This document shows, one piece after another, positions 45,713-58,907 of a stretch of DNA of 64,000 nucleotides. How positions within the stretch are numbered: the stretch's first letter is position 1; the number at the start of each line of letters is the position of its first letter. The stretch is taken from the IMG/VR virus record IMGVR_UViG_3300003878_000001, positions 1-64,000 of that record; one strand, given 5' to 3'. The position numbers and the translations under genes were made by a program. This DNA is from a virus. The notes beneath the pieces were generated by a model. That model searched no databases, was not told the DNA's origin, and saw only the letters and a list, made by a program, of their open reading frames with translations.

Positions 45713-45963
45713 TTCATCCTCATATATTCAAATACAATATCGTCAAACATAGAACTTTGACAATCCATCATTTTCCTTAGAAATCCAAGTTTAACTTCTG
45801 TAGAAATCTCGGGATCAGTATCCATCTGGTTTAATGCCAATTGCATCAATTCCATTTTACCTGATCCTCCTGCTCTAAAACATAGGTGAGGATATTTAGG
45901 GGTGATTATGTCTTCAGGATAATCTGAAACCTCATCCCATTTGTAATAGATTTTATCTTTCAT
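45709..45963 (-). CDS. hypothetical protein (84 aa)
   Basis: The ATG is directly preceded by repeat copy R5 (...GTAATGCGAGAAT-ATG). Confidence 0.5.
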   Translation of the reverse strand: MKDKIYYKWDEVSDYPEDIITPKYPHLCFRAGGSGKMELMQLALNQMDTDPEISTEVKLGFLRKMMDCQSSMFDDIVFEYMRMN

Positions 45964-45966
45964 ATT

Positions 45967-46013
45967 CTCGCATTACAGTTTAACTATTTAATCAAAAAAG
46001 TAATAAACTATAG
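45967..46013. repeat. quasi-palindromic intergenic repeat, copy R5
   Basis: CTCGCATTAC-AGTTTAACTAT-TTAATCAAAAAAG-TAATAAACTATAG. Confidence 0.7.
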
Positions 46014-46017
46014 TTAG

Positions 46018-46194
46018 TTACCCTGCATAGATAGTAAGCTGACTATTTCGCTTCAATTGGCGAAGATGCATAGCATAAGTTGCTTGTGAAGCATCTCGTT
46101 GAATGGCGTCATAATCAGATTGTTTCATTCTTGTATTCTTGACTGCTTGAACGTTTGCACCAATTTTAGTTAATCGGTTTGAGGATTTTGCCAT
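46018..46194 (-). CDS. possible small protein (58 aa), below the ORF-track cutoff
   Basis: ATG 46194 shares one base with the upstream TAA (TAATG). Translates as MAKSSNRLTKIGANVQAVKNTRMKQSDYDAIQRDASQATYAMHLRQLKRNSQLTIYAG. Confidence 0.4.
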   Translation of the reverse strand: MAKSSNRLTKIGANVQAVKNTRMKQSDYDAIQRDASQATYAMHLRQLKRNSQLTIYAG

Positions 46195-46346
46195 TAGATT
46201 ACACCTTGTAAAGACTCTATGATAGAATCAGGAAAACGTTTTAATATGTCTTGAATCACCGATTCAGCATCAGGGTATTTTTCTTGATCTTTTGGTATAC
46301 TCAGTTCTTTGACTGTACCATTCCACTTGAATTTTACTGTCACCAT
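46194..46346 (-). CDS. possible small protein (50 aa), below the ORF-track cutoff
   Basis: ATG 46346 follows directly after the stop of 46347-46562. Tight packing supports coding. Confidence 0.4.
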   Translation of the reverse strand: MVTVKFKWNGTVKELSIPKDQEKYPDAESVIQDILKRFPDSIIESLQGVI

Positions 46347-46562
46347 TTAATAGTCACCAATATGTAGAGTTCTTTCCTCAGATATGTTGTCAGGAATATT
46401 TGACATTTGATTATCAAAGTCGCTGGTTTTCTCTACGTTAACGTGGTTTTGAGTCATAGGGACAGACTGATCATAGCCATATTCACCACAACAGGAACAC
46501 ACTAAATCACCCTCCAATACTTTGATTTCTTGAAGTTTAGCGATTAGTTCACTGATTCTCAT
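46347..46562 (-). CDS. hypothetical protein (71 aa)
   Basis: Start taken at ATG 46562 with SD AAGGAA. The track start at 46598 lacks an SD. Confidence 0.5.
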   Translation of the reverse strand: MRISELIAKLQEIKVLEGDLVCSCCGEYGYDQSVPMTQNHVNVEKTSDFDNQMSNIPDNISEERTLHIGDY

Positions 46563-46650
46563 TATCTTGGTTTCCTTTATTGTACTAACATTATACAATA
46601 AGTCCCAAGAAATACATCTCAGGACTTACACGGATCTTTTTGAATTGTGC

Positions 46651-47100
46651 TTAGAATTGGTATCCGTATCCTACGGTAGTAAACGCTCTATCGAAATTAT
46701 AAAACGTATCGACCCGTAAAACATGGCTAGGAGCCAATTCTAGAGCTGTATTGATGTTAAGTGAAGGATCTAGCTCGTCATCAATCCAAGCCACTCCAGC
46801 ACCCGCAGAAACGTCAATCAGAGCCGTATCTATGATATCATAGGTTAGTGCAGCGGAGGCATCTACACCATGATCAAACATAAACACAGAGTAGAGGTTG
46901 ATATTCTCTGTCAATGGTAAATTTGTACCAACGGTAAGATCACCGTTTTGTAATGTGTATCCGACAAAAAGCTCCGGTTGGTTTTCGGGTTGTTCAACGA
47001 TTTCAACAGGGATAGAATAACCAGACAGTTGAATTGGTGGTGTGTAATCCATAGTTTTTGTTAGTTTACTTGTGAATAAAATCTGTGGTTGGCATATCAT
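46651..47100 (-). CDS. hypothetical protein with a beta-barrel-like C-terminal signature
   Basis: Ends in TTVGYGYQF (terminal aromatic residue as in outer-membrane barrels), but I see no clear signal peptide. The start is uncertain (47100 or 47052). Confidence 0.4.
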   Translation of the reverse strand: MICQPQILFTSKLTKTMDYTPPIQLSGYSIPVEIVEQPENQPELFVGYTLQNGDLTVGTNLPLTENINLYSVFMFDHGVDASAALTYDIIDTALIDVSAGAGVAWIDDELDPSLNINTALELAPSHVLRVDTFYNFDRAFTTVGYGYQF

Positions 47101-47260
47101 ATTTCTGATGCCAAAGTAAAGTATCTATGACATTTGTTGTCACTTTTTCTGTGATCCATTTCTCTTTACCAAACCACTTTTCTCGTTTGGATTCTGGAAC
47201 ATATCTCATTAATGAATAAACCATTCGACCAAACGAGAGTTTCACTTTGATTCTATACAT
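47066..47260 (-). CDS. hypothetical basic protein (64 aa)
   Basis: Starts right after the Pnkp stop. Confidence 0.45.
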   Translation of the reverse strand: MYRIKVKLSFGRMVYSLMRYVPESKREKWFGKEKWITEKVTTNVIDTLLWHQKYDMPTTDFIHK

Positions 47261-48136
47261 TTAGAAATTTCCCTCAGCTACTTGGAAACATTGTAACCCA
47301 ATTGATCGCCACATGTCAACCACTTGTTGACGATCATCAAAGACAGCAATCACATTAAAATCAGGTTCAACATGTTTTCTAAACAACTCTTCCTTGACAA
47401 TATTGTCTTTTCGAGTGTCTCCCTCCATACGCATGAATAGGGATAGCTCACCCTTTAGCAAACCATGCCGTAATAACCATTCTGTTGTCTGTCGGTAACA
47501 CTCAAGAGTACCTTCACGACCGCTCATAAAGATGATTTTATGAGTTTTTGCCCAACGTTGAATAGTTTCGATAACAGGCGTATTAGGCAAGTCTTCACCT
47601 ACTCTATCCCACTCATAAGGGGAGCGTTCATCCATTAGAGCAACAGTACCATCAATATCGCAAAGAATTACATCCACCTTATCAGGATCATGAATAACAG
47701 GAGTGATAGGCTTTCTGATGAATTGGTTATACATCCGTTTGATGACTTTTTCACCAACAGAAACAGGACGCTTAAGATCTCTGGCAATACACTCTTCCAA
47801 TGAAACATTAAGAAAAGAACGATTAACAGTGACTTTAACAGTTGCTCCAAAATTTTCACGAACAATTTGACGAATTCTCGCTTCGTGGGATGGAGCCAAA
47901 TTGGTATCACTGACAACAACATGTTTACCTGCTTTTAGACAAGAAATAATCAATTGGTCTCTCATCTCAAGAATGAATTTCTCGTTATTCTTTGACCAGT
48001 GAGAATCATGAAGCATCGCCCTAAGACAATCTTTTTCAACTCTAAACCATGAACGGTTTTTAGAATTGACCAATTCTTTTGCATAGGTTGATTTACCACT
48101 TGCAGGTAAACCCATTAAAATTTGTACTTGTAACAT
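47261..48136 (-). CDS. polynucleotide 5'-kinase / 3'-phosphatase (T4 PseT-like Pnkp)
   Basis: N-terminal P-loop GLPASGKST. C-terminal HAD phosphatase CDIDGTVA...IFMSGRE...FDDRQQVVDMW. Confidence 0.85.
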   Translation of the reverse strand: MLQVQILMGLPASGKSTYAKELVNSKNRSWFRVEKDCLRAMLHDSHWSKNNEKFILEMRDQLIISCLKAGKHVVVSDTNLAPSHEARIRQIVRENFGATVKVTVNRSFLNVSLEECIARDLKRPVSVGEKVIKRMYNQFIRKPITPVIHDPDKVDVILCDIDGTVALMDERSPYEWDRVGEDLPNTPVIETIQRWAKTHKIIFMSGREGTLECYRQTTEWLLRHGLLKGELSLFMRMEGDTRKDNIVKEELFRKHVEPDFNVIAVFDDRQQVVDMWRSIGLQCFQVAEGNF

Positions 48137-48154
48137 TACATAACTCCGTTTTGT

Positions 48155-48466
48155 TTATTTGCCTACATTACACATTTTTCCAATTGTCCATATTCCAGCA
48201 GTTAGAAAGATGCTGCCAACATATGTAATGGGTGTGAGACTAGGTATCATAACTACAATAGCAAAATTCCAAGCACCCCATAAAAAGAATGATGAGATCA
48301 ACCAAGGAGATAAAATCAATAGCAAATACATTGCAACTGCTGATCCTGAAAGAACCAAAGCAAATAATACCAATGAGATATCACCTACAATATCCATTCT
48401 ATCATGGTAGTAGGCTGCTGCAATTAGACTTGCAATCAGAGAAATAGCGGCAATAGTAATAAGCAT
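48155..48466 (-). CDS. membrane protein (103 aa)
   Basis: Almost entirely hydrophobic, with about 3 TM segments. Confidence 0.5.
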   Translation of the reverse strand: MLITIAAISLIASLIAAAYYHDRMDIVGDISLVLFALVLSGSAVAMYLLLILSPWLISSFFLWGAWNFAIVVMIPSLTPITYVGSIFLTAGIWTIGKMCNVGK

Positions 48467-48469
48467 GAT

Positions 48470-48625
48470 TTATCCTAGATTATAATCAGACATTTCAACA
48501 CCATTAAAGAAGATGGTGACAGCACACGAGGATGAATTGTACTCAGAAACGGCTTCATTAAATAATCCCTTCCAAGCGTGGAGCACTTGTCCTCTAATGT
48601 CCACAATCTCAATTAGTGCTTCCAT
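48470..48625 (-). CDS. possible small protein (51 aa), below the ORF-track cutoff
   Basis: ATG 48625 to TAA 48470, ending 3 nt before ATG 48466. Confidence 0.35.
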   Translation of the reverse strand: MEALIEIVDIRGQVLHAWKGLFNEAVSEYNSSSCAVTIFFNGVEMSDYNLG

Positions 48626-48677
48626 TGTTTTCTCCCTTCATTACACTCATTATATCAATTAGTACAACAAATGAACA

Positions 48678-49103
48678 TCAGCATATACACTGATTAATCC
48701 ATATGGCTTGCTCTTGTGGTACACTCAAATCTAATGTCCATATTTGTGAAGGACGTGATAAGTAGTGTAAAGTTAAGGTAATACAGTTTTCAGGATCTAC
48801 TTCTTGATCATAGCCATTGCAATAGAGCATATGTACTATCATTTCTGTACTTGTTTTAGGTGATAAACTGTCAGGAGTATGTACAATTAACATTAATTTA
48901 TGTAAGTCCAATCGTGAGGAGTGTTCATGCGATATTTTTCTAAAACACATTTCACCTGTATATTGTTTATTATCATATTCTTGAATAAGAACTATATCAT
49001 TGGGTTTGAATTTTTGTGATTCGTCAACAATGATATAGTTCTTATTTCTTTTGAGAATAAGATTATATTCAATAGAATCCATCGTTCTGTATTTAAGAAC
49101 CAT
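48678..49103 (-). CDS. ASCH/DUF3850-like (PUA-fold) protein
   Basis: FKPNDIVLIQEYDNKQYTGE matches the DUF3850-type pattern (ND..VGD.L.L.E....YTG). Confidence 0.45.
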   Translation of the reverse strand: MVLKYRTMDSIEYNLILKRNKNYIIVDESQKFKPNDIVLIQEYDNKQYTGEMCFRKISHEHSSRLDLHKLMLIVHTPDSLSPKTSTEMIVHMLYCNGYDQEVDPENCITLTLHYLSRPSQIWTLDLSVPQEQAIWINQCIC

Positions 49104-49384
49104 TAGTGATCTCTCATTGGTCTGATGTTATTGGTTCCGAGATGGGTAGGGATGTCAGCAGAAAAATCACTAGGGGCATCAAAAACAGTTCCTTCAGAGT
49201 CTACGATTCTAGTCATTTCCGCACCTAAAAACTTAGACAATTTACAAGAATTAGTTTTTGTTTTAACAAAAAGCTCTTCACTGTCATCATGACCACGAGA
49301 AAGATAGAAAGCAGTGTAATCTGGTAAACTGCCAATTGGCATATGTGCATCAGTCGGGTGAACTCTAGGCATAATATTTTTCAA
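49103..49384 (-). CDS. hypothetical protein (93 aa)
   Basis: 1-nt overlap with the downstream gene. Confidence 0.45.
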   Translation of the reverse strand: MKNIMPRVHPTDAHMPIGSLPDYTAFYLSRGHDDSEELFVKTKTNSCKLSKFLGAEMTRIVDSEGTVFDAPSDFSADIPTHLGTNNIRPMRDH

Positions 49385-50441
49385 TCATCTCCATAACAGA
49401 TTTTACATTAATCTTTGCAAAATACTCTTGAACAGTTTGTATTTTGCCTGCCCTCAATTGGAATAAAGCTCCTGAAAATTCAGCATCTTTTACAGTAAGA
49501 GCAAATTCTTTTTGTTCTTTGATATCTTGCGTGTTGAACCACACATGTTCTACCATTTGTACTAATTTTTGATACTTTGTTTCTAACTCAGTATAAATAT
49601 CAGCATATTCTTTGAAATAGGATAGCAATTCGCTGCCCTCATTAGCAATAGCAATAGCTAAAAGTTTGTTTCGTGTCATTCCATCTCTGAAATGTGAAAG
49701 TCTAACATATTGTTCTGTTTTGATTTTAATTCTATTGAAATTACTATCTCTAACAATATATCCCTCTTGAATCATAGGATCAAGAGTTTTAGACTGAATT
49801 AGCAAATATTGAAGATTTCCAATTGTTACACCTGAAAGAAAGTTAAACGGCATAGTACCTGTTAATTCAACTTCCTTCAATGTACGAAGATTACGAACTC
49901 CATGTAAAGTTAATAAGTTTGTCTCTTGTTTGACTACCACTCGATTAAGAGGTGTTTCTAATTCAAACATATAACAATAAGTACAATCTAAACCTTCGGT
50001 AGTGTATCCTTCTTCTTTGAATACTTGCCAGAATAGTTCTGCAAAAGTAATGTTGAAATCTCCAACTTGTCCACCACCATCCGCTGTACCACTTGATTGA
50101 ACTAACCATTCACCTTGATAGAAGTATAATGTCATCAAAGATCCATCAAGTTTGGGTACAAATGTTGCTGTTGTCCAATCAATTTCAGCAGCTAATTGTT
50201 CACCATGATTAAAGAACTTGTTGTAAGGATAACTGACTACAGCCCAATCGTTAGACTCATCAAGAATAATACCACGACATTCACAAACAATTTCCTCAGA
50301 GAAAGGTGATTCAATCTGAGAATATTTCAAACATACCAAGTTGTTAAAAGAATTATGTCTTTTAGATTTAATAGCATAGTCTCTTTTAAGAGTTTCTAAT
50401 GTGTTTTCTGATTGTCTTAAGTATGTCTGAATAGCTAACAT
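49365..50441 (-). CDS. RNA ligase, T4 RnlA (Rnl1)-like
   Basis: Start at ATG 50441 (SD AGAAGGAAA). ECRGIIL, YPYNKFFNHGE and motif I PKLDGSL are collinear with T4 Rnl1 (ECRGIMF, MEKFFNLNE, KEDGSL). Confidence 0.8.
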   Translation of the reverse strand: MLAIQTYLRQSENTLETLKRDYAIKSKRHNSFNNLVCLKYSQIESPFSEEIVCECRGIILDESNDWAVVSYPYNKFFNHGEQLAAEIDWTTATFVPKLDGSLMTLYFYQGEWLVQSSGTADGGGQVGDFNITFAELFWQVFKEEGYTTEGLDCTYCYMFELETPLNRVVVKQETNLLTLHGVRNLRTLKEVELTGTMPFNFLSGVTIGNLQYLLIQSKTLDPMIQEGYIVRDSNFNRIKIKTEQYVRLSHFRDGMTRNKLLAIAIANEGSELLSYFKEYADIYTELETKYQKLVQMVEHVWFNTQDIKEQKEFALTVKDAEFSGALFQLRAGKIQTVQEYFAKINVKSVMEMIEKYYA

Positions 50442-50485
50442 AATATATTTCCTTCTCTTGAACTTATTATAACTAATGAAAAACA

Positions 50486-50797
50486 CTATGTCAAATACTT
50501 TGTGGGGATGTAATCAGTATACAATAGGTAAGGAAGAACCATAAGAACTTCAATTTTTGTATCAAAACACCATTCCTTTAAGGTATCTGTTCTAGTTAGA
50601 ATGTATGTACATCCTCTTATGGAATAGGTAATGATCAACTTGTTACCAAAATTTAATCTTACTTGTTTTCCTGATAACTGTCTAACATGTTCCGGGCCAT
50701 CCATGTTACGAATTAGATCAGATAAAGGGCTTAAATAGTTCTTTGCTGCTACGTAAGCCCGAGGATGTAAACCATTAGGCAATTTCTGACTCATCAA
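50486..50797 (-). CDS. hypothetical protein (103 aa)
   Basis: Minus-strand ORF. Confidence 0.45.
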   Translation of the reverse strand: MMSQKLPNGLHPRAYVAAKNYLSPLSDLIRNMDGPEHVRQLSGKQVRLNFGNKLIITYSIRGCTYILTRTDTLKEWCFDTKIEVLMVLPYLLYTDYIPTKYLT

Positions 50798-51101
50798 AAT
50801 CCACCGATTCTATACAATAATCATATCTTGAATCAATACCTTCTTTATATTCTGGTAAAAGAGATTCCAATTTGTTTATGATCTCTAATTCACGAGAATC
50901 ATGTAAAAGAGTTTCCCAAGAATCGATATCTGATCGTTTTGAGCGAACATTATAATCAATACCACACCAAACATTATGTAAATGATTGACTAATTCCATG
51001 AATAAAACAGCCGATGTTTCATCAAGAAAAGCTTTTATATTTTCTTTAGAATACTCATCCCAATCAGTGTATTCACGATATACAATCCAAATCTTTTTCA
51101 T
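50775..51101 (-). CDS. hypothetical acidic protein (108 aa)
   Basis: Start taken at ATG 51101, just downstream of the stop of 51109-51411. Confidence 0.45.
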   Translation of the reverse strand: MKKIWIVYREYTDWDEYSKENIKAFLDETSAVLFMELVNHLHNVWCGIDYNVRSKRSDIDSWETLLHDSRELEIINKLESLLPEYKEGIDSRYDYCIESVDFDESEIA

Positions 51102-51108
51102 TATTCTT

Positions 51109-51411
51109 TTAGTTATTGTATTGTAACTGGTGTGACCAAAGAGCAGTTTTTTCTTCTTGTGACTCTGGCAGTTGAACCAGTTCAGTAAACCCTTTGTCAG
51201 TGTACTCAATGCGTGAATAGGAAGCCATACGACTTAAAGAGGGTTTGAAACCTTTCATAGTCATAGATAACATCTTATCAATAAACTCCGTATTCTCTGC
51301 TTTTTCATACTCTGATTGTAATACTGATTCCCAATCATAATCAAGAGCCTCTGACCCTTGAGAGTAGAGAAATGTAACACGAACTTCAATCATATGTTTC
51401 TTCTTTTTCAA
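51109..51411 (-). CDS. hypothetical protein (100 aa)
   Basis: Minus-strand ORF, the first gene after the tRNA-like RNA. Confidence 0.45.
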   Translation of the reverse strand: MKKKKHMIEVRVTFLYSQGSEALDYDWESVLQSEYEKAENTEFIDKMLSMTMKGFKPSLSRMASYSRIEYTDKGFTELVQLPESQEEKTALWSHQLQYNN

Positions 51412-51472
51412 TCTTTATACTAACCAGTATAATACCAAAAACATTAAAAGTCATTAGTAGAACTACTTAAAA

Positions 51473-51698
51473 TCAGGCTAACCGGACTCGAACCGGCAGA
51501 CATTAACTATAAGAGATGAAACGTGCTTCCCCTTGATTTGCCTTTTGAGCAAGATCCGACAAGTTAATGCCGTTAGGTGCCTCCGCAAAGCTCACTTATA
51601 GAAACTCCTTACGATACAAATGTACTCATGGGGAGTTTGACCAGCATAGCTGTTTCCTTTCCGTTTCAAAGGTGTTTTACCACTTAAACTATAGCCCG
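51473..51698 (-). ncRNA. 226-nt tRNA-like RNA with a ~150-nt insertion at the variable-arm position
   Basis: Hand fold: acceptor CGGGCTA/TAGCCTG (7 bp, one G-U), D arm GTTT-AAGTGGTA-AAAC, anticodon-like arm CCTTT-GAAACGG-AAAGG (A at position 33), ~150-nt branched insert closed by AGCTAT/ATAGTT, T arm GCCGG-TTCGAGT-CCGGT, discriminator A, no CCA. It lies 12 nt downstream of tRNA-Lys. Confidence 0.55.
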
Positions 51699-51710
51699 GT
51701 ATCTTGTGAG

Positions 51711-51784
51711 TGGGATACGTGGGACTCGAACCCACAACCTTGAGATTAAGAATCTCCTGCACTAACCAATTGTGCTAGTATCCC
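51711..51784 (-). tRNA. tRNA-Lys (anticodon CUU)
   Basis: Hand fold: GGGATAC/GTATCCC acceptor, GCAC-AATTGGTTA-GTGC D arm, anticodon loop TTCTTAA, GTGGG-TTCGAGT-CCCAC T arm. No encoded CCA. Confidence 0.8.
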
Positions 51785-51790
51785 GATTTT

Positions 51791-52099
51791 TTAGCTCATA
51801 TATTTCTCGAATGCGGACAAAAGTGAGCTTGGATTTTCGATTATTTTATTAACTTCTTGTTCTAATAGTTTAGGAGTGTTAATAATTCTATCCATTTCAG
51901 CAATTTGCTTCATCATGCGATTATTGTCATCTTCCATACGTTCACGACTTGTGTATGTAATATGACCATTATAACAGATAATAACGTGTTCATCAGTTAC
52001 AATACGAGGAATTCTCTCATCTAGTAATTTTACAAAATCACCAATAGGAATAGCTTCAGGTTCATGGTAATTCTTATGCAGATTATTCATTATAGGCAT
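51791..52099 (-). CDS. hypothetical protein (102 aa)
   Basis: Minus-strand ORF directly upstream of tRNA-Lys. Confidence 0.45.
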   Translation of the reverse strand: MPIMNNLHKNYHEPEAIPIGDFVKLLDERIPRIVTDEHVIICYNGHITYTSRERMEDDNNRMMKQIAEMDRIINTPKLLEQEVNKIIENPSSLLSAFEKYMS

Positions 52100-52293
52100 T
52101 CACTTTTGATGATGGAGTAGTAAGAAACGTCTTTTATGGGAAAATCAGGAAATCTACCTTTAGTTAATTGGTTAAAAATAGTAGAATTTCCATATTTGAG
52201 TTTATTATATACCTCATTAGCTTTGTGGTTAGAATCGGTATGACCTAGAACGGTACAGCCACCAGAAATGAAATTAGCAACAAGAATATACAT
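52090..52293 (-). CDS. hypothetical protein (67 aa)
   Basis: 10-nt overlap with the downstream gene. Confidence 0.45.
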   Translation of the reverse strand: MYILVANFISGGCTVLGHTDSNHKANEVYNKLKYGNSTIFNQLTKGRFPDFPIKDVSYYSIIKSECL

Positions 52294-52303
52294 GGTTTAT
52301 TTT

Positions 52304-52597
52304 TTAGGTTTTAGGTTTTACAAGTGGTAGACCAGCAGCTTTACGAAACCCTTCAGCCGCTTCAAAGCGGGAGGTAAAACCCTCACCATTAGTTCCAAAA
52401 TAGTTGTTTTGACCGACAAATCTCCAAACGCCATACGATTCAAATAAGCAAACTTTACCAAACAAACTGATTCGCTTTTTCAACTGGTTTTCCTCTTTCG
52501 TATTTCTATTATAATCAATAACATGAAAAGAATCATCAGTAGATTTACTTATCTTCGGTACAAACCTCATAAGATTGATGTTGAAGACATATTTCAA
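52304..52597 (-). CDS. hypothetical protein (97 aa; TTG start, or ATG at 52570)
   Basis: Minus-strand ORF. The start is uncertain. Confidence 0.4.
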   Translation of the reverse strand: MKYVFNINLMRFVPKISKSTDDSFHVIDYNRNTKEENQLKKRISLFGKVCLFESYGVWRFVGQNNYFGTNGEGFTSRFEAAEGFRKAAGLPLVKPKT

Positions 52598-52763
52598 GTT
52601 TTTTCAGTTCATAGGCATTATCTTGAGCCGTATCAATCAGAAGCATAGCTACTACACCTCCACCAATAAGAGTAACAAAAATTATACCAAGAATAGTAGA
52701 CATCCATTCATCAAAAGAGGTGTTTACATTTGCTACTGGTTCTGCTGTTTCGTTTGTTTCCAT
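52545..52763 (-). CDS. small membrane protein (72 aa)
   Basis: TM segment ILGIIFVTLIGGGVVAMLLI. Confidence 0.45.
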   Translation of the reverse strand: METNETAEPVANVNTSFDEWMSTILGIIFVTLIGGGVVAMLLIDTAQDNAYELKKLEICLQHQSYEVCTEDK

Positions 52764-52810
52764 TTTATTTGTACCACGATATGTGGTAAATTGACCACAA
52801 TGTGTGGTAA

Positions 52811-52883
52811 TGCGGGATGGCAGGATCGAACTGCCCTATGACGACTTATGAGGTCGTTGCTTTCACCAGAAAGCTAATCCCGC
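52811..52883 (-). tRNA. tRNA with CAU anticodon (elongator Met or Ile2-type)
   Basis: Hand fold: GCGGGAT/ATCCCGC, GCTT-TCTGGTGA-AAGC, ACGAC-CTCATAA-GTCGT, GGCAG-TTCGATC-CTGCC. No initiator features and no encoded CCA. Confidence 0.8.
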
Positions 52884-52886
52884 AAA

Positions 52887-52909
52887 TTACGAGTGTAACA
52901 GACTCGTAA
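52887..52909 (-). terminator. 8-bp hairpin between gene 52918-53226 and the tRNA (terminator or processing site)
   Basis: TTACGAGT / ACTCGTAA stem with a 7-nt loop. Only a short T run follows on the minus strand. Confidence 0.35.
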
Positions 52910-52917
52910 CTTTTGTT

Positions 52918-53226
52918 CTATTCTTCTACGGCTTCTACATCGATTATCTCTTCATTTGGATCATAGTCATCCCAACCTTTTGCAATAGTACCAGCGATTA
53001 GAACCGGATGTTTTACTGTTGCCAATTCGACAAGAGAAACAACATAACCTATCCGTTTGATGGCTCCTGTTTCATAGTCCATTTGTTGTAGAGCAAATTG
53101 AGCACCATCTTCAACACGAAAACAGTTCACACCAACATCTAGAGCAACACGTCTAGTAAGTTCTGCTTTGATCTCAATTAGTTTCTTTTGAGCAGCTTGA
53201 TTGAATTTTGGGGTTAATGCGGTCAT
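52918..53226 (-). CDS. hypothetical protein (102 aa)
   Basis: Preceded by repeat copy R6 and an SD AAGGAA. Confidence 0.5.
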   Translation of the reverse strand: MTALTPKFNQAAQKKLIEIKAELTRRVALDVGVNCFRVEDGAQFALQQMDYETGAIKRIGYVVSLVELATVKHPVLIAGTIAKGWDDYDPNEEIIDVEAVEE

Positions 53227-53256
53227 AGTATTCCTTGAATTTTGTTTATTACTACT

Positions 53257-53305
53257 TATAGTTTATTATCACTTTTTTCATTAAATAAACTATAAGTATG
53301 CGATG
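53257..53305. repeat. quasi-palindromic intergenic repeat, copy R6 (GCGA box at right end)
   Basis: TTATAGTTTATTATCA-CTTTTTTCATTAA-ATAAACTATAA-GTATGCGATGA. It equals copy R2 read on the opposite strand. Confidence 0.7.
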
Positions 53306-53320
53306 ATATTTACAATAGGT

Positions 53321-53803
53321 CTAGAAGAGGTCTAAACCTGTAATCGATATTACTGTTTCACCAATTAGATCACAAACCAGTTCAGCTTTAGTTGCAAAAG
53401 TCTTCTCAGGAAGAACTCCATATTCACTAAGATATTTGAATCCTGTATTATATGCGTTAGTATCTGTTGAAACTCTGTAGTCAATAGTCTTCACTTTGGA
53501 TGTGATAATCTGATTATCTGCCAAGTAGTAAACCGTTTGATCAAGAGCAAACTTCGCAACAGGAACTTCGAGACCATTTAGAGTAGGAATAATCTCGTTT
53601 TCAATTCGATATTGATTAGCCAAAATCTTGGCCATAGCATGTTCATTGCAATTTCCTGAAGCTCCATCAGGATTCATACCAAGTTCACTCATTAAAAGCA
53701 AAGTGATTGTCCCTAACGATGCATTCATAGTTTTTAACTCATGTTCATACATGCAATTAAGTTTACTTTCTACATATGCTTTGAACTGTTCAATTGTTGT
53801 CAT
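53321..53803 (-). CDS. hypothetical protein (160 aa)
   Basis: Start taken at ATG 53803. Confidence 0.45.
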   Translation of the reverse strand: MTTIEQFKAYVESKLNCMYEHELKTMNASLGTITLLLMSELGMNPDGASGNCNEHAMAKILANQYRIENEIIPTLNGLEVPVAKFALDQTVYYLADNQIITSKVKTIDYRVSTDTNAYNTGFKYLSEYGVLPEKTFATKAELVCDLIGETVISITGLDLF

Positions 53804-54080
53804 TATTCTTCTGTCCTTCAAGTATTGATTGTAACTTTTCAATGAGATTTCTAATTGTCTGTTCAAGCACCAAATATTGTGCAAGGCTTGACATAGAGTG
53901 ACCTATTGCTATGTCCTCTCTACCTTCAACTTCGTAACCATTACGCTGCATACCTCTACAAACAATAGTACCAAGATCTTTGTCTTGATATCTTACTGTT
54001 CTTTTGGTGATGGCAGACTCATTTGTTTTAATTAGTTCGTATTGAACTGTCTCTCCTAACAGGAGCATTGTTTTTTTCAT
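53790..54080 (-). CDS. hypothetical protein (96 aa)
   Basis: The ATG is adjacent to the upstream stop. Confidence 0.45.
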   Translation of the reverse strand: MKKTMLLLGETVQYELIKTNESAITKRTVRYQDKDLGTIVCRGMQRNGYEVEGREDIAIGHSMSSLAQYLVLEQTIRNLIEKLQSILEGQKNNDNN

Positions 54081-54386
54081 CTAGAATTTTGCCGTCCTAA
54101 ATCTCAGGGTTTGAACTTGCTCGTACAAATCATAAATTAAACTTTGTTGTTCCCGAAATATTCGTTCAGCAATCAACGGTTTTAACTCATTGTGAGCAAC
54201 AGAGTATACATCAATAAGATTAATTGTGTCACCTGTCTCAAGAAAAACAATATTCAGTCCATCAAGTTTTGTAGTAGAAAAAATTTTCCCACGAAACAGA
54301 CTTTCTAGCTCATGAGCTAAGAAAACATTTAGAATTTTTTCATCTTGAGTGAATTTGTATCCTATTCCTGTGTATTTAACAATCAT
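54081..54386 (-). CDS. hypothetical protein (101 aa)
   Basis: Start taken at ATG 54386. The longer track ORF overlaps 54376-54744. Confidence 0.45.
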   Translation of the reverse strand: MIVKYTGIGYKFTQDEKILNVFLAHELESLFRGKIFSTTKLDGLNIVFLETGDTINLIDVYSVAHNELKPLIAERIFREQQSLIYDLYEQVQTLRFRTAKF

Positions 54387-54744
54387 ATTCTCTACACTCT
54401 CTACTACTAGGAAAAGAAAGACAATATGCATCCATATGAGCACCTGAATAAGGAATACTAGGTTCGACAACAGGAAATGACTCTGCAAGCAAACGCTTAC
54501 ACAGTTCTTGTTGAGCAGAAAGTGCAATAGAGGTCATTCCCATTACAGTTTCGTCACTAATTTGTTGAGCCCATTGACGAAGAAGAGCATTATCTTGTAC
54601 TACACAAGTATTACACCACTCGTTATATTCTTCGTGAATTTGAATAAGTTGCTCCGTGGTTGGAGTCTCGCCATTATTTAGCATAGAAATTTGGTTTCTC
54701 TTCTTAGACTCTTTTATTATACTGTATATGTTTGGGACATACAT
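54376..54744 (-). CDS. hypothetical protein (122 aa)
   Basis: Minus-strand ORF downstream of the HNH gene. Confidence 0.45.
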   Translation of the reverse strand: MYVPNIYSIIKESKKRNQISMLNNGETPTTEQLIQIHEEYNEWCNTCVVQDNALLRQWAQQISDETVMGMTSIALSAQQELCKRLLAESFPVVEPSIPYSGAHMDAYCLSFPSSRECREYDC

Positions 54745-54783
54745 CAGTAATATTGCGGTTATATTAATGCCGGATGAGAGATT

Positions 54784-55215
54784 TTATCGTTTTCTATTTC
54801 TAAAGTTATCTGTTGTATAGTGACAATTTGGGCATAGTAACTGTAGATTTTCTCTAACATTATTTCTGTTGTTCCCGTCTATATGGTGTAACTCTAATCC
54901 AATTTTTTGACTAAGCCATTTTGATAATCCACAGTGTTCACACTTATGTTTTCTTTCTTTTATTAGTCTTGCTTTTATAGAAGAGGGTTTTAGTAAATCA
55001 TCAAATTTCTTAAACTCTTTTCCTGCATTATGAGCTTGATGTACCATGTGACTCGTATCCAATTGAAACTTATCTATGTTCCTTTGTAAATTGGAAAAAT
55101 TACCGCCTGCTGTTACAAGACCCATTTTTCTTAAACATTCTGCATAAGTATCAGAACTTGAAACAATAGGCTCAAGTTGTTCTTTAGTCCATCTTGTGTA
55201 TTTCTTGGAAGACAT
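54784..55215 (-). CDS. HNH homing endonuclease
   Basis: CEHCGLSKW...LELHHIDGNNRNNVRENLQLLCPNCH. Paralog of 60902-61423. Confidence 0.85.
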   Translation of the reverse strand: MSSKKYTRWTKEQLEPIVSSSDTYAECLRKMGLVTAGGNFSNLQRNIDKFQLDTSHMVHQAHNAGKEFKKFDDLLKPSSIKARLIKERKHKCEHCGLSKWLSQKIGLELHHIDGNNRNNVRENLQLLCPNCHYTTDNFRNRKR

Positions 55216-55287
55216 GGTGATAAATGATAACGTCTATACCATAAGTAACCGGTAATATAGTCTTATATATGTTATAAGTTTGGTTTA

Positions 55288-55361
55288 TGCCAGTAACAGG
55301 AGTCGAACCTGCACTTGACCGTGCTTAAAACGGTTGCCTCTTCCAATTGGGCTATACTGGC
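55288..55361 (-). tRNA. tRNA-Leu-type (anticodon UAA) with a short variable loop
   Basis: Hand fold: GCCAGTA/TACTGGC, ACCGT-TTTAAGC-ACGGT, 5-nt variable loop CAAGT, GCAGG-TTCGACT-CCTGT, A73. No encoded CCA. Confidence 0.7.
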
Positions 55362-55703
55362 AGATGTCTGTATCTCATTGGCTAGAGCAGACAGACGGCT
55401 GAGGTTTATATATCGGCATCCAGTCCGCTCAATAAGAACTAAACCTAGAGGCTATGCCATCGTTGGTTATCGTGGTTCATACGTTTAATGCTTACCCGAT
55501 TAAATTAGGCACGAGAGAGATTATTCATACATCGTGTTAACTCTTTGAACGATTCAAAGTCACCCTCCGATATTTTGACCTCGGGAACGGGAAACCGGAA
55601 AAGTCACCGGATATAATCTGATTGTTCCTTTCACAGATCATATTTAGCCTCCGATTGGTTGAGGCACCCCTTAGAACAGGTATGGAACAAACCTATTCAA
55701 AGC
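55362..55703 (-). ncRNA. ORF-free, hairpin-dense ~340-nt segment (candidate stable RNA; strand uncertain)
   Basis: No ORF of 60 aa or more in any frame. Visibly richer in G+C than its surroundings. Many local stems (CTTTGAA-CGA-TTCAAAG, GCCTC...GAGGC, CGG-GAAA-CCG, ATATAATCTG...CAGATCATAT). It shares AACCGGAAAAnTCnCCGG with 62345-62595. Confidence 0.3.
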
Positions 55704-55886
55704 TTAGGAGATTAAAGGAACTGTAACGTACCAGTAATCAGGAAACCATGTTTTAGGTCTACGTTGACCCTCGAATTGAGATTCAACCAATTCATCTACA
55801 CGAGTTTTACACTTTTCTTCATCTGTATAAGACTCAAATGGTGCTGAGCCTTCAGAATAGCTCTTTTTCATTATGATATAGATCAT
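55704..55886 (-). CDS. hypothetical protein (60 aa)
   Basis: ATG 55886 with SD AAGGA. Confidence 0.45.
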   Translation of the reverse strand: MIYIIMKKSYSEGSAPFESYTDEEKCKTRVDELVESQFEGQRRPKTWFPDYWYVTVPLIS

Positions 55887-55908
55887 CAATTCCTTTAATT
55901 AGTTGAAG

Positions 55909-55980
55909 AGCCTCCACTCGGAACCGAACCGAGATCTTGGCTTTACAAGAGCCGTATTCTTCCAGTTAAACTATAGAGGC
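55909..55980 (-). tRNA. tRNA-Thr (anticodon UGU)
   Basis: Hand fold: GCCTCTA/TGGAGGC, anticodon loop CTTGTAA, CTCGG-TTCGGTT-CCGAG. No encoded CCA. Confidence 0.7.
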
Positions 55981-55985
55981 AAAAA

Positions 55986-56213
55986 TTAAGCAGCTAAAAC
56001 GGCTTCTTTTAATTGGTCAGGTGTAATTGTTACGGTATCAAATACGGCAATTAAACCGGATTCTGTTGTTTTAATGGTAACATCTTGAGAATGTTCTGAT
56101 CCAGCTTCAAAAACCCCTTGAATCTCTGTGCTGGTGCCGTCAAGAAGATCTACTATGTCTAGTGGACCTGCTGTAATAGAACCAGCATATGTAGCAAAAG
56201 GTAAAGAAATCAT
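55986..56213 (-). CDS. hypothetical protein (75 aa)
   Basis: ATGA overlap with the basic-peptide ORF upstream. Confidence 0.45.
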   Translation of the reverse strand: MISLPFATYAGSITAGPLDIVDLLDGTSTEIQGVFEAGSEHSQDVTIKTTESGLIAVFDTVTITPDQLKEAVLAA

Positions 56214-56338
56214 GTTTTTAACTTTTTCGATAGTGTTTTCATTCTCTTTTTGTACTGACGTAACTTTGCAGATCCGCCACGACCTTTACGATTACGTCCT
56301 TTCTTACGAGGAGATTCATGGCTTTTTAATCGGTTCAT
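56210..56338 (-). CDS. 42-aa highly basic peptide, paralog A (below the ORF-track cutoff)
   Basis: MNRLKSHESPRKKGRNRKGRGGSAKLRQYKKRMKTLSKKLKT. SD GAGGG upstream and an ATGA overlap downstream. About three quarters of residues match 63182-63310 although the DNA has diverged. Confidence 0.6.
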   Translation of the reverse strand: MNRLKSHESPRKKGRNRKGRGGSAKLRQYKKRMKTLSKKLKT

Positions 56339-56388
56339 TGACTTGCCCTCGTTCGATTACTTATATTATAACCAAACTCAAACAAACC

Positions 56389-56598
56389 TCAATCAGTGAA
56401 ATTACTTAATAATGATTTTACAGTGGAGGTTATATGACTTGCCAATTGTTGAGGGTTTCTAGTACCTGATGAACGAGATAGATCAAGATTAGAGTAAGCA
56501 CCTTCTAAAGCTTTACCCAAAAGATAACGCTCTAAATATTGTCTTCGTGTCTCTGTTACTTGAATTAGATTAGTAGTTTCGGGTTGATTGGTTGGCAT
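56389..56598 (-). CDS. hypothetical protein (69 aa)
   Basis: Overlaps the 3' end of the NTase gene by 29 nt. Confidence 0.4.
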   Translation of the reverse strand: MPTNQPETTNLIQVTETRRQYLERYLLGKALEGAYSNLDLSRSSGTRNPQQLASHITSTVKSLLSNFTD

Positions 56599-57376
56599 AG
56601 TATGTCTCTATCATTTCAATGAAAAAATCACTTAATTGTTGCTCTGGTAAAGGCTTAGGAAATACATCAAAATCTAATTCATCCAGAATATTCATCATTC
56701 TTGAACATTCCTCTTGAACATAATCTAATCTAATTTGACCTGCTTTGATTTTTCTAAGAAGTAACTCTTGTTTATACGAAAAACCATTAATGTTAATAAC
56801 TAGATCACGCTTTAAGTAAATGTAGTGCAATTGGTAAAGTAATCGAAGACAATGCATAGCATGTTTAACAGGATAACCGGCATTCTCATCAGCTACTTTA
56901 CGAATTGACGTTTTCACAGGAGAAGGTAAGTCAATTTCAGAACATAGGTTTTGAGTCTTATTGCTTAATCGCTTTAATTGTGCATAAGCATAACCTTTAT
57001 ATGTTTTTATAACATTTCTGTTCAAAAACATAAACCTATTATCAATGAGTTTTTGACCTGTAGGTGTAATGATCTTGTGGTTAGGATTAAAAATAACTTC
57101 AAGAATATTTGGATTAGCTTTGTTCGCTAATTTCAAATATTTTTTCAAATCCCAAACAACAGTATCTTCAGATAGAAATTTAAGTTTTCCATCTTCCTCT
57201 AACCAACCACTATCTTTCTGTTCAAAACCTTCATAACGAACATAATCAGAAAAATATGGACGGATCATAATTCCACGCCAATCATAATCGCTGGAATCGG
57301 TCTCCATGCCATATGAACGACTACCCGCCAAAGCCATCAGAATGATGTTATTTTCAATGGTTTTTCTGTTATACAT
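56570..57376 (-). CDS. Pol-beta-superfamily nucleotidyltransferase, RlaP-like
   Basis: N-terminal LAGSRSYGMETDSSDYDWRG (G-S...D-x-D signature) and a helical C-terminal half. Confidence 0.55.
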   Translation of the reverse strand: MYNRKTIENNIILMALAGSRSYGMETDSSDYDWRGIMIRPYFSDYVRYEGFEQKDSGWLEEDGKLKFLSEDTVVWDLKKYLKLANKANPNILEVIFNPNHKIITPTGQKLIDNRFMFLNRNVIKTYKGYAYAQLKRLSNKTQNLCSEIDLPSPVKTSIRKVADENAGYPVKHAMHCLRLLYQLHYIYLKRDLVININGFSYKQELLLRKIKAGQIRLDYVQEECSRMMNILDELDFDVFPKPLPEQQLSDFFIEMIETYYANQSTRNY

Positions 57377-57379
57377 ATT

Positions 57380-57559
57380 TTATCTGCTTTTCCTGTCTAC
57401 CATTTCTACTACATTAACAGTTCCTGTGCAAAATGTCAAGAGAAAAAGCCCAAATCTAATGGAACCACCACTTTTATCAATATTAGGATCAAGGTGAGGT
57501 AAGAATATGAAACTAATTAGAGATAATACACAAATCAAGTTGTTAAACCAAATCAGCAT
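57380..57559 (-). CDS. small membrane protein (59 aa)
   Basis: ATG 57559 in a TAATG overlap. Hydrophobic N-terminus. Confidence 0.4.
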   Translation of the reverse strand: MLIWFNNLICVLSLISFIFLPHLDPNIDKSGGSIRFGLFLLTFCTGTVNVVEMVDRKSR

Positions 57560-57891
57560 TACCACATTACCTCGATTACATAGCTGCCAGGATGAAGCAT
57601 TTGAAGATTAACCAAATCTTGAATCAATGTGGAAAAATCCCATTGTCCAATATCCATTCTAACTCTCTCACCTGAAGAAGGTTTAACAAGAATCAGATCA
57701 TTGTTGATCGTGTTTAATGTTTCTGTTCTTTCTTCGGGCTTAATCTGATAGTTGACGTTATTGATGTAATAGGAAGTATCATTTGATACAGCATCCAATT
57801 CAACAGGTACATCATAAACCTGTTCTGCAAGGTTAAACAGTTCCCTGTAGGAGATAATGTAAACCAATTCACGTTTCAAGTTGTTTTTCAT
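57559..57891 (-). CDS. hypothetical protein (110 aa)
   Basis: Minus-strand ORF. Confidence 0.45.
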   Translation of the reverse strand: MKNNLKRELVYIISYRELFNLAEQVYDVPVELDAVSNDTSYYINNVNYQIKPEERTETLNTINNDLILVKPSSGERVRMDIGQWDFSTLIQDLVNLQMLHPGSYVIEVMW

Positions 57892-57892
57892 A

Positions 57893-58195: not shown

Positions 58196-58217
58196 TTTCT
58201 GTTTTCTCTTTAGTAAA

Positions 58218-58876: not shown

Positions 58877-58907
58877 AATATCACAAATTCTATTGTTATC
58901 CTGATAT

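Follow-up and report, generated by a model that had tools for sequence, protein, structure and literature searches.

The stretch of DNA analysed here, referred to as the window, comprises positions 1 to 64,000 of the IMG/VR virus record IMGVR_UViG_3300003878_000001. Directly after a lysine tRNA gene it carries a sequence of 226 nt that has the parts of a tRNA and also a large insertion in the variable region. The question raised by this locus is whether it is a tRNA gene, the relic of one, or the gene of an RNA that uses the tRNA shape for something else.

The tRNA-shaped element

The element is located on the minus strand, nucleotide i of the element being window coordinate 51699-i. The following parts were recognized:

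51473..51698, minus strand: whole tRNA-shaped element, 226 nt, 5′ end at 51698 and A73 at 51473 (sequence, ARAGORN after deletion of the insertion, and control constructs)
51692..51698, minus strand: 5′ strand of the acceptor stem, CGGGCUA, nt 1-7, forming 7 bp with 51474-51480
51674..51689, minus strand: D arm GUUU-AAGUGGUA-AAAC, nt 10-25, with A14, A15, G18, G19 and A21 (read from the sequence)
51656..51672, minus strand: anticodon-like arm CCUUU-GAAACGG-AAAGG, nt 27-43, in which ARAGORN takes AAC as the anticodon
51503..51655, minus strand: insertion in the variable region, 153 nt, nt 44-196 (folding, shuffles and GC content; no Rfam match and no homologue in the searches given below)
51498..51502, minus strand: variable-loop remnant UGUCU, nt 197-201, with U48 as its last base (read from the sequence)
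51481..51497, minus strand: T arm GCCGG-UUCGAGU-CCGGU, nt 202-218, with G53-C61 and a canonical T loop
51473..51480, minus strand: 3′ strand of the acceptor stem, UAGCCUG, nt 219-225, and discriminator A73, nt 226

Every part listed in an earlier note on this DNA (acceptor stem, D arm with GG, T arm and A73) was present. The acceptor pairs read from the sequence were C1-G72, G2.U71, G3-C70, G4-C69, C5-G68, U6-A67 and A7-U66; U8 and A9 precede the D arm, A26 follows it, and CCA is not encoded at the 3′ end. All of the stem pairs (21/21) were intact, and the tertiary bases U8, A14, A15:U48, G18, G19, A21, G53-C61 and UUCGAGU were all kept. Since U48 lies directly 5′ of the T arm, an A15:U48 Levitt pair is possible. 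The anticodon-like arm has 5 bp and a 7-nt loop, two of the seven loop positions (G32 and A33) being non-consensus, and its 3′ strand is also a Shine-Dalgarno-like AAAGGA motif. As noted earlier, this hairpin lacks U33, A33 being in its place, and the insertion, previously put at about 150 nt, was found to be 153 nt between the anticodon-like arm and the variable-loop remnant.

When the insertion was deleted in silico, ARAGORN called a tRNA, named tRNA-Val(AAC) for essentially any deletion starting at nt 42-47 and ending at nt 175-199. Control constructs (n = 42,516) were made by joining the equivalents of nt 1-43 and nt 197-226 at every third position on both strands of the window. Three of these were called by ARAGORN, namely the element itself and 2 in a real tRNA-Met/Trp gene cluster at about 59 kb. 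Because the calls were limited to the element and two sites within real tRNA genes, the tRNA shape is clearly real and not a chance arrangement.

A pyrimidine at position 32 and U33 are near-universal in tRNA anticodon loops, with U33 belonging to the U-turn. Instead of the Y32, U33, R37 and U-turn pattern, the loop of the element reads G32 A33 A34 A35 C36 G37 G38, and a normal anticodon U-turn is ruled out because of A33 and G32. The variable region, which is 4-5 nt in class I tRNAs and one arm of up to about 25 nt in class II tRNAs, spans 158 nt here; variable arms reach, to our knowledge, about 25 nt at most. The cloverleaf of the Rfam tRNA family (RF00005), with 7-bp acceptor, D, anticodon and T stems and the tertiary bases, was found, and yet RF00005 gave no match at the element even at E ≤ 10 in a 600-nt search and default ARAGORN did not call it as a tRNA. 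The element thus resembles canonical and class II tRNAs in its 7/4/5/5-bp stems, its tertiary-contact bases, the exit of extra sequence from the variable pocket and its position in a tRNA cluster, but differs from them in A33 and G32, in the 153-nt branched extra region and in the failure of both the Rfam tRNA model and default ARAGORN. Judged by its sequence, the element is not a decoding tRNA, in agreement with the earlier note: A33 and G32 replace U33 and Y32, and neither program recognized it.

Insertion, neighbouring genes and relatives

Folding of the insertion revealed the following features:

51602..51638, minus strand: hairpin nt 61-97 (AAACUCC...GGAGUUU), pair probabilities 0.74-0.98, z -4.4 versus shuffles for a region chosen after the fold was seen
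51507..51601, minus strand: long arm nt 98-192, weakly predicted, with sub-hairpins nt 127-142 and nt 143-164, pair probabilities 0.4-0.96, z -1.5
51518..51523, minus strand: CGUUUC, nt 176-181, a 6-nt complement to GAAACG (nt 32-37) of the anticodon-like loop

In the thermodynamically preferred fold the variable region gives rise to three helices, at nt 47-57, at nt 61-97 and at nt 98-192, the last being closed by CUAUAAG/CUUAUAG. Of the stems proposed earlier, AAACUCC/GGAGUUU and GAU(C)UUGC/GCAAAUC were both in the predicted fold, while closure of the insertion by AGCUAU/AUAGUU (nt 48-53/189-194) can form and is disfavored by thermodynamic folding. The nt 61-97 hairpin was the sole helix of the insertion to beat shuffles, and it hides the second of two Shine-Dalgarno-like motifs (see below); the insertion as a whole was no more stable than shuffles (z -0.7 to -1.5). 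Pairing of CGUUUC with the GAAACG loop is possible and is a hint only, a complement of at least 6 nt to the loop being seen in 3.7% of 5,000 dinucleotide shuffles. The GC content of the insertion, 42.5% versus 35.8% for the genome, falls in the top 6% of windows; it was counted for a structured RNA because structured RNA genes tend to be GC-richer, and a departure from the genome average is compatible with foreign origin too. No Rfam family, including tRNA, tmRNA, YrlA and group I intron, matched the element.

Two features adjoin the element on its 5′ side:

51711..51784, minus strand: tRNA-Lys(CUU), the likely co-transcribed upstream neighbour (ARAGORN; Rfam tRNA, 67.6 bits)
51699..51710, minus strand: spacer CUCACAAGAUAC, 12 nt, between tRNA-Lys and the element

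The element had been likened to a member of the tRNA precursor, and its position fits this description, as it begins 12 nt after tRNA-Lys and a search for a terminator-like site between the two found none. CCA is not encoded in tRNA-Lys and at least four other tRNAs of the island. The presence of RNA-repair genes near the element was also confirmed; the tRNA island encodes Rnl1, PNKP, RlaP and two CCA-adding-type (PolyA_pol-family) enzymes at 43413-44093 and 59878-60606, with Rnl1 and PNKP 1-4 kb from the element and the RNA ligase, PNKP and the two CCA-adding-type enzymes all within 1-8 kb. Among the homing endonuclease genes of the island, at least three are of the HNH type and one is I-TevI-like, and a permuted tmRNA is encoded by the same phage. 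The phage host is probably a cyanobacterium, as suggested by ligase homologues (about 50% identical) that include named cyanobacterial proteins, the one contig inspected being a cellular locus; the tag of the phage tmRNA also bears on a cyanobacterial host.

One other copy of the element, from another sample, was found and was 100% identical. The nearest syntenic relative, L003, was reached via the ligase (69% identical; upstream ORF, 46% identical) and has tRNA-Lys without the element. In the comparison with L002, identity shifts abruptly just upstream of tRNA-Lys, being approximately 78% to one side of this mosaic boundary and 100% to the other. No homologue was detected when the locus and the in-silico spliced tRNA were searched by megablast and blastn against 50,697 phage genomes (INPHARED), or when IMG/VR was searched with the exact T-arm/acceptor pattern, with a structure-aware pattern that specified the D loop and the GAAACGG loop and left the stems free or, starting from tRNA-Lys, with a conserved 24-mer of the phage tRNA-Lys. 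The structure-aware pattern gave 10 matches in JGI metagenomes, all of them chance matches without a D stem or T arm. Searching the element as a pseudo-protein (six degenerate 24-nt patterns) against IMG/VR, metagenomes and GTDB genomes yielded no homologue, and the 20-nt D arm matched, in GTDB genomes, only chance sites and a tRNA-Glu locus of Paraclostridium that is unrelated. The flanking 94-aa and 102-aa ORFs had no relatives among 5.8 billion proteins.

Some minor candidates were set aside. No paralogue of the element was found elsewhere in the window, matches to a possible antisense target in the window were at chance level (11-15 nt), and an 11-nt match to the orthologous L003 slot was on the opposite strand and was treated as chance.

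A possible stable RNA or broken tRNA gene

The closest known architecture is found in phage T4, where the record lists tRNA-Arg, rnaD (species 2) 1 nt downstream and rnaC (species 1) 6 nt further, with segB, a GIY-YIG homing endonuclease gene, adjoining the pair. The T arm of T4 rnaC, CCGGG-UUCGAAU-CCCGG, is canonical; the 3′ strand after it forms an acceptor-like stem with a strand further upstream, and long extra hairpins lie between these two strands. Neither rnaC nor rnaD has an Rfam family, and we know of no function for them after 50 years. Like the element, the T4 species belong to a phage tRNA cluster, within it or at its end, follow a tRNA by a few nt and have a tRNA-like T arm and paired ends. 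Unlike the element, which has both, rnaC shows no recognizable D or anticodon arm; in addition, the extra sequence of the element sits in the variable region, and T4 infects enterobacteria whereas the present phage probably infects cyanobacteria. A distant BLAST against the phage collection, T4 included, showed no sequence similarity to rnaC or rnaD. The T4 parallel drawn in the earlier note can therefore be kept for species 1 RNA as a fair architectural analogue, on account of the cluster end, the canonical T arm and the acceptor-like end pairing.

We tentatively favor the reading that the element is the gene of a non-decoding, tRNA-derived stable RNA with tRNA-like processing, whose architecture is nearest to that of T4 species 1 RNA. 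The element would be co-transcribed with tRNA-Lys, cut by RNase P before C1 and given its 3′ end after A73 by RNase Z or exonucleases, and the host enzyme, or one of the two phage nucleotidyltransferases of the PolyA_pol family, would add CCA. The acceptor/T minihelix and the D/T elbow, which make up the L-shaped core, are intact, with the insertion leaving the tRNA body at the variable pocket as two or three helices. Long extra arms are tolerated in tRNA at the variable pocket and the anticodon loop. On this view the tRNA body would serve for processing, stability and recognition, and the insertion would be the payload. Phage tRNA clusters are now viewed as counter-measures against host tRNA-attacking enzymes, and we would guess that the element is a tRNA mimic in the phage-host contest of tRNA damage and repair, serving as decoy or partner of a tRNA-binding enzyme.

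The intact stem pairs and tertiary bases, the ARAGORN calls on the body once the insertion was deleted, the nt 61-97 hairpin, the proximity of tRNA-Lys, the RNA-repair island and the likeness to T4 rnaC were counted for the stable-RNA reading; counted against it were the lack of a homologue, the full identity of the only other copy, the L003 locus without the element and the folding of the whole insertion no better than shuffles. Compared with T4 species 1 and 2, the element is a cleaner case, with an undamaged tRNA core, decoding lost and a large payload at a permissive site. If functional, it would provide a defined construct for studying the role of tRNA-shaped non-decoding phage RNAs, be it as decoy, enzyme partner or frame of a small message.

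A second reading, somewhat unlikely in our estimate, is that foreign or rearranged DNA entered the variable loop of a tRNA gene and left a recent, functionless relic that is transcribed and perhaps processed. The element is an orphan and is missing from L003, it lies in an island rich in homing endonucleases, which would keep recombining it, and the L002 mosaic boundary is just upstream of tRNA-Lys. The lack of significant overall structure in the insertion and its deviating GC content agree with such an origin, and the two Shine-Dalgarno-led ORFs described below could be a captured gene junction. The distribution of changes argues otherwise, as G32 and A33 are altered while every stem pair and tertiary base is intact. 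A relic is disfavored because the anticodon loop should still be normal after a recent insertion, and the stems should be damaged after an old one; similarly, neutral decay would not have spared 42 stem bases and about 15 conserved ones while altering the two most conserved loop positions. The insertion also sits at one of only two tolerant sites, the variable loop making up about 5 of the 76 tRNA positions. If the element is merely a tRNA broken by insertion, it would be an ordinary case that shows the turnover of tRNA islands rich in homing endonucleases.

Reading frames, introns and tmRNA

Two putative coding regions are present inside the insertion:

51609..51647, minus strand: mini-ORF a, AUG at nt 52, 12 codons (MLVKLPMSTFVS), UAA at nt 88-90, AAAGGAAACAGCU upstream
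51503..51595, minus strand: mini-ORF b, GUG at nt 104, 30 codons (MSFAEAPNGINLSDLAQKANQGEARFISYS), UAA at nt 194-196, UAAGGAG 9 nt upstream

Together they fill 132 of the 153 inserted bases, with Shine-Dalgarno-like motifs at 4-10 nt spacing; the stop codon of ORF-a overlaps the second motif, and ORF-b ends at the final base of the insertion. Under criteria set post hoc, a Shine-Dalgarno-led ORF pair was seen in none of 5,000 dinucleotide shuffles and none of 3,207 antisense background windows, and a single Shine-Dalgarno-led ORF of at least 30 codons in about 1% of shuffles or background windows. The AAGGAG motif is also used by two phage genes, with starts at 14643 and 17679.

This arrangement raises an unlikely but specific alternative, namely a mini-mRNA framed by a tRNA, in which RNase P and RNase Z excise a bicistronic message that is protected by its paired ends. 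ORF-a would be translated first, opening the nt 61-97 hairpin and freeing UAAGGAG, so that translation of ORF-b is coupled to it. The packing of the two frames into the insertion, the absence of such a pair from the shuffles and background windows, the overlap of stop codon and motif, the common end of ORF-b and insertion and the AAGGAG of the two phage genes all speak for it. Against it, the third-position GC content (GC3) of the two ORFs combined was 0.48 versus 0.26 in six long genes of the same phage, that of ORF-b being atypical for this phage, and a strong Shine-Dalgarno motif was present in only 7 of 42 phage genes. The motifs are also purine-rich stem strands, explicable without translation. 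No homologue of ORF-b was found in phage genomes, IMG/VR (reading-frame search) or Pfam, nor among 1.84 billion protein representatives apart from repeat artefacts, these being three tandem-repeat matches, plant-derived in appearance. ORF-b was also considered as the helix-turn-helix of a homing endonuclease and rejected (no Pfam match; E = 32 versus the I-TevI-like ORF). The full form of the proposal, which we regard as improbable, is a natural tRNA-scaffolded mini-mRNA whose body would be a cassette for excision, end protection and possibly CCA tagging, carrying coupled cistrons of 12 and 30 codons with ribosome-binding sites masked by the anticodon-like stem and the nt 61-97 hairpin. If true, the element would represent a cis-translated equivalent of tmRNA and a precedent in nature for engineered tRNA scaffolds.

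An intron-containing tRNA gene, from which self-splicing, or cleavage with subsequent PNKP/Rnl1 healing and sealing, would yield a tRNA of about 75 nt, is very improbable. The flanks of the insertion are able to pair (AGCUAU/AUAGUU), the genes for Rnl1 and PNKP lie at a distance of 1-4 kb, and the host is probably a cyanobacterium, a group whose tRNA genes carry group I introns. The element shares with those genes an interrupted tRNA gene in a cyanobacterial setting, but differs in the variable-region site, the 153-nt length, the lack of core helices and the lack of an Rfam match. No Rfam intron family, Intron_gpI included, matched at E ≤ 10 in the 600-nt search, and 153 nt is below the size of any group I core known to us. 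Group I introns are characterized by a P3-P8 catalytic core, a U.G pair in P1 at the 5′ splice site and a terminal G, and in tRNA genes they occupy the anticodon loop. Here an intact anticodon-like arm precedes the insertion, and there is no U.G pair in CCUUU/AAAGG or at a plausible 5′ splice site. An archaeal-type intron is marked at its borders with the exons by a bulge-helix-bulge, in which a 4-bp helix lies between two bulges of 3 nt; here the borders form a 6-bp helix (nt 48-53/189-194) with flanks of 4 nt and 2 nt. The intron mode of ARAGORN gave poor alternatives only. The unconventional intron once suggested for this locus was thus not borne out, as removal of the insertion leaves a non-functional anticodon loop, GAAACGG with A33. 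The Rfam check that had been proposed assigned the region to no known intron or tmRNA class.

A second tmRNA-like molecule for trans-translation is suggested by the tRNA-like domain with internal ORFs in a phage that already has a permuted tmRNA, but this reading is already largely refuted and has a negligible chance of being correct. The element is like tmRNA in its acceptor/T module and its large internal insertion with an open reading frame, and unlike it in lacking G3.U70, a pseudoknot and a tag architecture. Its wobble pair is G2.U71, followed by G3-C70, in place of the G3.U70 alanine identity pair of tmRNA (RF00023; permuted form, RF04321), and its D stem and full anticodon-like arm fill the SmpB binding position; tmRNA has no D stem, and P2 and pseudoknots stand in for its anticodon arm. 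The tag ORF of tmRNA lacks a start codon, whereas both ORFs of the element begin with one behind a Shine-Dalgarno-like motif and have no tag end of the ...LAA type, and neither the tmRNA mode of ARAGORN nor the Rfam tmRNA models gave a match.

Bacterial Y RNAs such as YrlA, to which the earlier note also pointed, resemble the element in having a tRNA-like module and being encoded near RNA-repair genes. The ends of YrlA RNA lie in the Ro-binding stem and not in the acceptor stem, whereas those of the element form an acceptor stem, and no TROVE/Ro protein was found among 39 window ORFs scanned with Pfam. The likeness did not hold in Rfam, where YrlA (RF02553) scored 18.5 bits versus a gathering score of 69, and the match was an artefact in which the T arm of tRNA-Lys was joined to the D arm of the element. 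Elsewhere in the window, the tRNA at 60629-60709 was considered as an amber suppressor and rejected, since the Rfam alignment gives it the anticodon GCU with U33.

The tRNA body of the element

The element is a tRNA-shaped sequence of 226 nt, 12 nt from the 3′ end of the upstream tRNA-Lys(CUU). The earlier note had described it as such from the sequence by eye, and the description was accurate: the feature is real, all tRNA arms being readable as follows (minus strand, RNA sense).

51698 (5′ end) to 51473, minus strand: whole element
Acceptor stem, 5′ strand: CGGGCUA
Between acceptor 5′ strand and D arm: U8 and A9
D arm: GUUU-AAGUGGUA-AAAC, with A14, A15, G18, G19 and A21
Between D arm and anticodon-like arm: A26
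Anticodon-like arm, nt 27–43: CCUUU-GAAACGG-AAAGG, 5-bp stem and 7-nt loop
Insertion, nt 44–196: 153 nt
Variable loop, 3′ of the insertion: UGUCU, normal-looking, last base U48
T arm: GCCGG-UUCGAGU-CCGGU, G53-C61 present
Acceptor stem, 3′ strand: UAGCCUG, 7 bp including G2·U71
3′ end: A73, no encoded CCA

The stem pairs were intact (21/21), and all standard tertiary-contact bases were present. The anticodon-like loop had G32 and A33 in place of the expected Y32 and U33, which are among the most conserved loop positions. A partner strand for CCUUU was sought near the T arm and none was found there; therefore, the hairpin at nt 27–43 is the true anticodon-arm counterpart, which places the insertion in the variable region rather than the anticodon loop.

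The tRNA arrangement of the element is more than chance. ARAGORN called no tRNA on the native sequence; following nearly any in silico deletion from nt 42–47 to nt 175–199, a 'Val(AAC)' tRNA was called. As the control, split constructs (43 nt and 30 nt, 153 nt apart) were taken from both strands across the whole window in steps of three positions. Only 3 of 42,516 were called, one being the element itself and the other two lying within a real tRNA-Met/Trp cluster near 59 kb. Motif search with GGTTCRANTCC, allowing zero mismatches, found only tRNA-type genes of the tRNA island.

Folding with the tRNA arms constrained showed three helices emanating from the variable region (nt 47–57, 61–97, and 98–192), the last with sub-hairpins at 127–142 and 143–164. 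The closing helix AGCUAU/AUAGUU proposed in the earlier note can be drawn as an alternative to these three and was not part of the constrained fold. The hairpin at nt 61–97 was the only part clearly better than shuffles, with z -4.4 versus -1.5 for both the 95-nt arm and the whole element and -0.7 for the insertion. CGUUUC at nt 176–181 is complementary to the loop bases GAAACG, and this possible pairing is only a hint, with so long a complement occurring in 3.7% of shuffles. The insertion had a GC content of 42.5%, versus 35.8% ± 4 for the window, within the top 6% of windows.

The tRNA island and its relatives

The window is a phage-type genome with 35% GC, encoding ribonucleotide reductase, thymidylate synthase, and topoisomerase. 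A minus-strand tRNA island spans 51 to 64 kb, and RNA-repair and tRNA-maintenance genes were observed to flank the tRNA genes densely (43413–60606).

41172–41657: Macro-domain protein
43413–44093: first PolyA_pol head-domain (CCA-adding-type) protein
44330–45712: DUF4942
47261–48136: PNKP, RNA repair
49365–50486: Rnl1-type RNA ligase, RNA repair
56570–57376: RlaP, RNA repair
59878–60606: second PolyA_pol head-domain (CCA-adding-type) protein
54784–55215, 60902–61423, 63425–63967, minus strand: homing endonuclease genes among the tRNA genes, two HNH and one I-TevI-like
62463–62971, minus strand: permuted (two-piece) tmRNA, Rfam 57 bits versus a gathering score of 47

The island had three HNH and one I-TevI-like homing endonucleases. 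The I-TevI-like ORF contained NUMOD3 and the I-TevI DNA-binding domain. Its N terminus seems to be without the GIY-YIG part, and the ORF may be either disrupted or cut by the window end. Between the acceptor and coding pieces of the tmRNA, a segment of approximately 430 nt carried a 106-aa ORF (62596–62916, minus strand), which by its motifs looks like a putative HNH homing endonuclease. The tmRNA tag was ANNIVPFARKRSLVAA followed by a stop, which we take to be of cyanobacterial type. Ligase homologues of approximately 50% identity included named cyanobacterial proteins, and the one such contig examined was a cellular locus. Based on these homologues and the tag, the host is probably a cyanobacterium.

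An odd class II tRNA was observed at 60629–60709 (minus strand), scoring 41.1 bits as tRNA-Sec (gathering score 47) and 29.9 bits as tRNA in Rfam, with no call by ARAGORN. As in 'allo' or selenocysteine tRNAs, its acceptor stem appears to have 8–9 bp and its T stem 4 bp. The Rfam alignment gave the loop UUGCUAA with anticodon GCU (Ser), which ruled out reading it as an amber suppressor.

The region had no match in the phage genome collection. Searches with exact, structure-aware, and degenerate pseudo-protein patterns detected neither the element nor its parts in IMG/VR, JGI metagenome contigs, or GTDB genomes, and both flanking ORFs had no homologues but themselves. In the closest syntenic relative (L003; ligase 69% and upstream ORF 46% identical), the tRNA order was the same, tRNA-Lys(CUU) included, and this tRNA was followed by approximately 100 nt unrelated to the element. 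With no match in these collections and an unrelated slot in L003, the element is, as judged from the sequences searched, restricted to one lineage.

A 1.3-kb contig from another sample (Logan SRR17148702) was 100% identical over the tRNA-Lys, the element, and the downstream ORF; compared with window 51050–52400, its genes upstream of tRNA-Lys were approximately 78% identical. The boundary was sharp, a few bases before tRNA-Lys, and the 100% identity extended to the contig end. Such an identical block beside diverged genes suggests that it was recently exchanged between related phages, and it offers no covariation.

Other unusual tRNA-like sequences were also observed. In L003, approximately 76 nt in the slot after tRNA-Lys (5481–5560) could be folded manually into a cloverleaf like that of tRNA-His(GUG), with encoded CCA; its D and T loops were non-canonical and Rfam gave no call at E ≤ 5. 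A second L003 segment (710–772) was a tRNA-Trp(CCA)-like gene, short and with its D arm reduced; it scored 37.9 bits as Rfam tRNA and was not called by ARAGORN. In Paraclostridium dentum (NZ_WIPK01000001.1, locus positions 2376–2507), a 132-nt tRNA-shaped gene had approximately 75 nt replacing the anticodon arm and scored 42.5 bits as Rfam tRNA with a 75-nt local insertion; the same locus in P. tenue had a normal tRNA-Glu(UUC). The P. dentum gene shared a 20-nt D-arm string with the element and was otherwise unrelated.

Possible explanations for the element

We tentatively regard the element as a functional, non-decoding tRNA-derived stable RNA, a reading that stands somewhat short of probable. 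An intact tRNA body together with loss of Y32 and U33 favours selection for the tRNA shape without decoding, and the raised GC and tRNA-like genomic placement point in the same direction. By established tRNA biology, such an RNA would be processed by RNase P and RNase Z and then receive CCA, and it could act as a decoy or partner. Counted against function were the orphan status, the absence from L003, an insertion that is weakly structured overall, and the turnover that endonucleases drive in the island. These points leave some room for an insertion-broken relic, which we consider rather unlikely; neutral decay after insertion fits poorly with, and can hardly explain, an intact body in which Y32 and U33 are lost.

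It is more doubtful that the insertion serves as a two-ORF message framed by the tRNA body. Two small ORFs, each preceded by a Shine-Dalgarno-like motif, nearly fill the insertion (minus strand):

ORF-a: AAAGGAAACAGCU-AUG, AUG at nt 52, 12 codons
ORF-b: UAAGGAG-9 nt-GUG, GUG at nt 104, 30 codons

The first motif lies within the 3′ strand of the anticodon-like stem and the second within that of the hairpin at nt 61–97; the ORF-a stop codon overlaps the second motif, and the ORF-b stop ends at the final base of the insertion. By a criterion set after data inspection, neither the dinucleotide shuffles (5,000) nor the antisense background windows (3,207) contained a comparable tandem pair. However, pooled GC3 of the two ORFs was 0.48 versus 0.26 in six long genes of the phage, and just 7 of 42 phage genes had a strong Shine-Dalgarno motif. 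ORF-b matched nothing in Pfam, phage genomes, or IMG/VR, and among 1.84 billion protein representatives it found only three tandem-repeat artefacts, plant-derived in look. The 14 nt comprising the first motif and its start codon, AGGAAACAGCUAUG (51645–51658, minus strand; nt 41–54), are presumably identical to the E. coli lacZ ribosome-binding site/M13 reverse-primer region. Vector contamination is unlikely since the element was present in two independent assemblies, and the match was treated as coincidence.

An unconventional intron is highly improbable. At gathering thresholds the element was unmatched in Rfam 15, and at E ≤ 10 a 600-nt slice around it gave no tRNA, tmRNA, group I/II intron, or ribozyme match; ARAGORN in intron mode gave poor alternatives only, with mismatched acceptor stems. 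A tmRNA-like molecule can practically be dismissed, with no match in ARAGORN tmRNA mode or Rfam. The single YrlA match in Rfam scored 18.5 bits versus a gathering score of 69 and spanned the tRNA-Lys T arm and the element D arm; it is an artefact of two neighbouring tRNA shapes, and the Y RNA candidate was rejected. The element is outside every catalogued RNA family.

Comparison with T4 rnaC and rnaD

The element fits best, as a variant of its own, with the tRNA-like stable RNAs encoded in phage tRNA clusters, a poorly understood group. In the T4 cluster, tRNA-Arg is followed by rnaD 1 nt on and rnaC 6 nt on, with segB alongside, and neither RNA has an Rfam family. T4 rnaC has a canonical T arm, then a 3′ strand pairing with an upstream strand, with long hairpins between. 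The element resembles these RNAs in position within the tRNA cluster and in general plan, and shares no sequence similarity with them. Unlike them, it retains the full cloverleaf and carries its extra RNA in the variable pocket.
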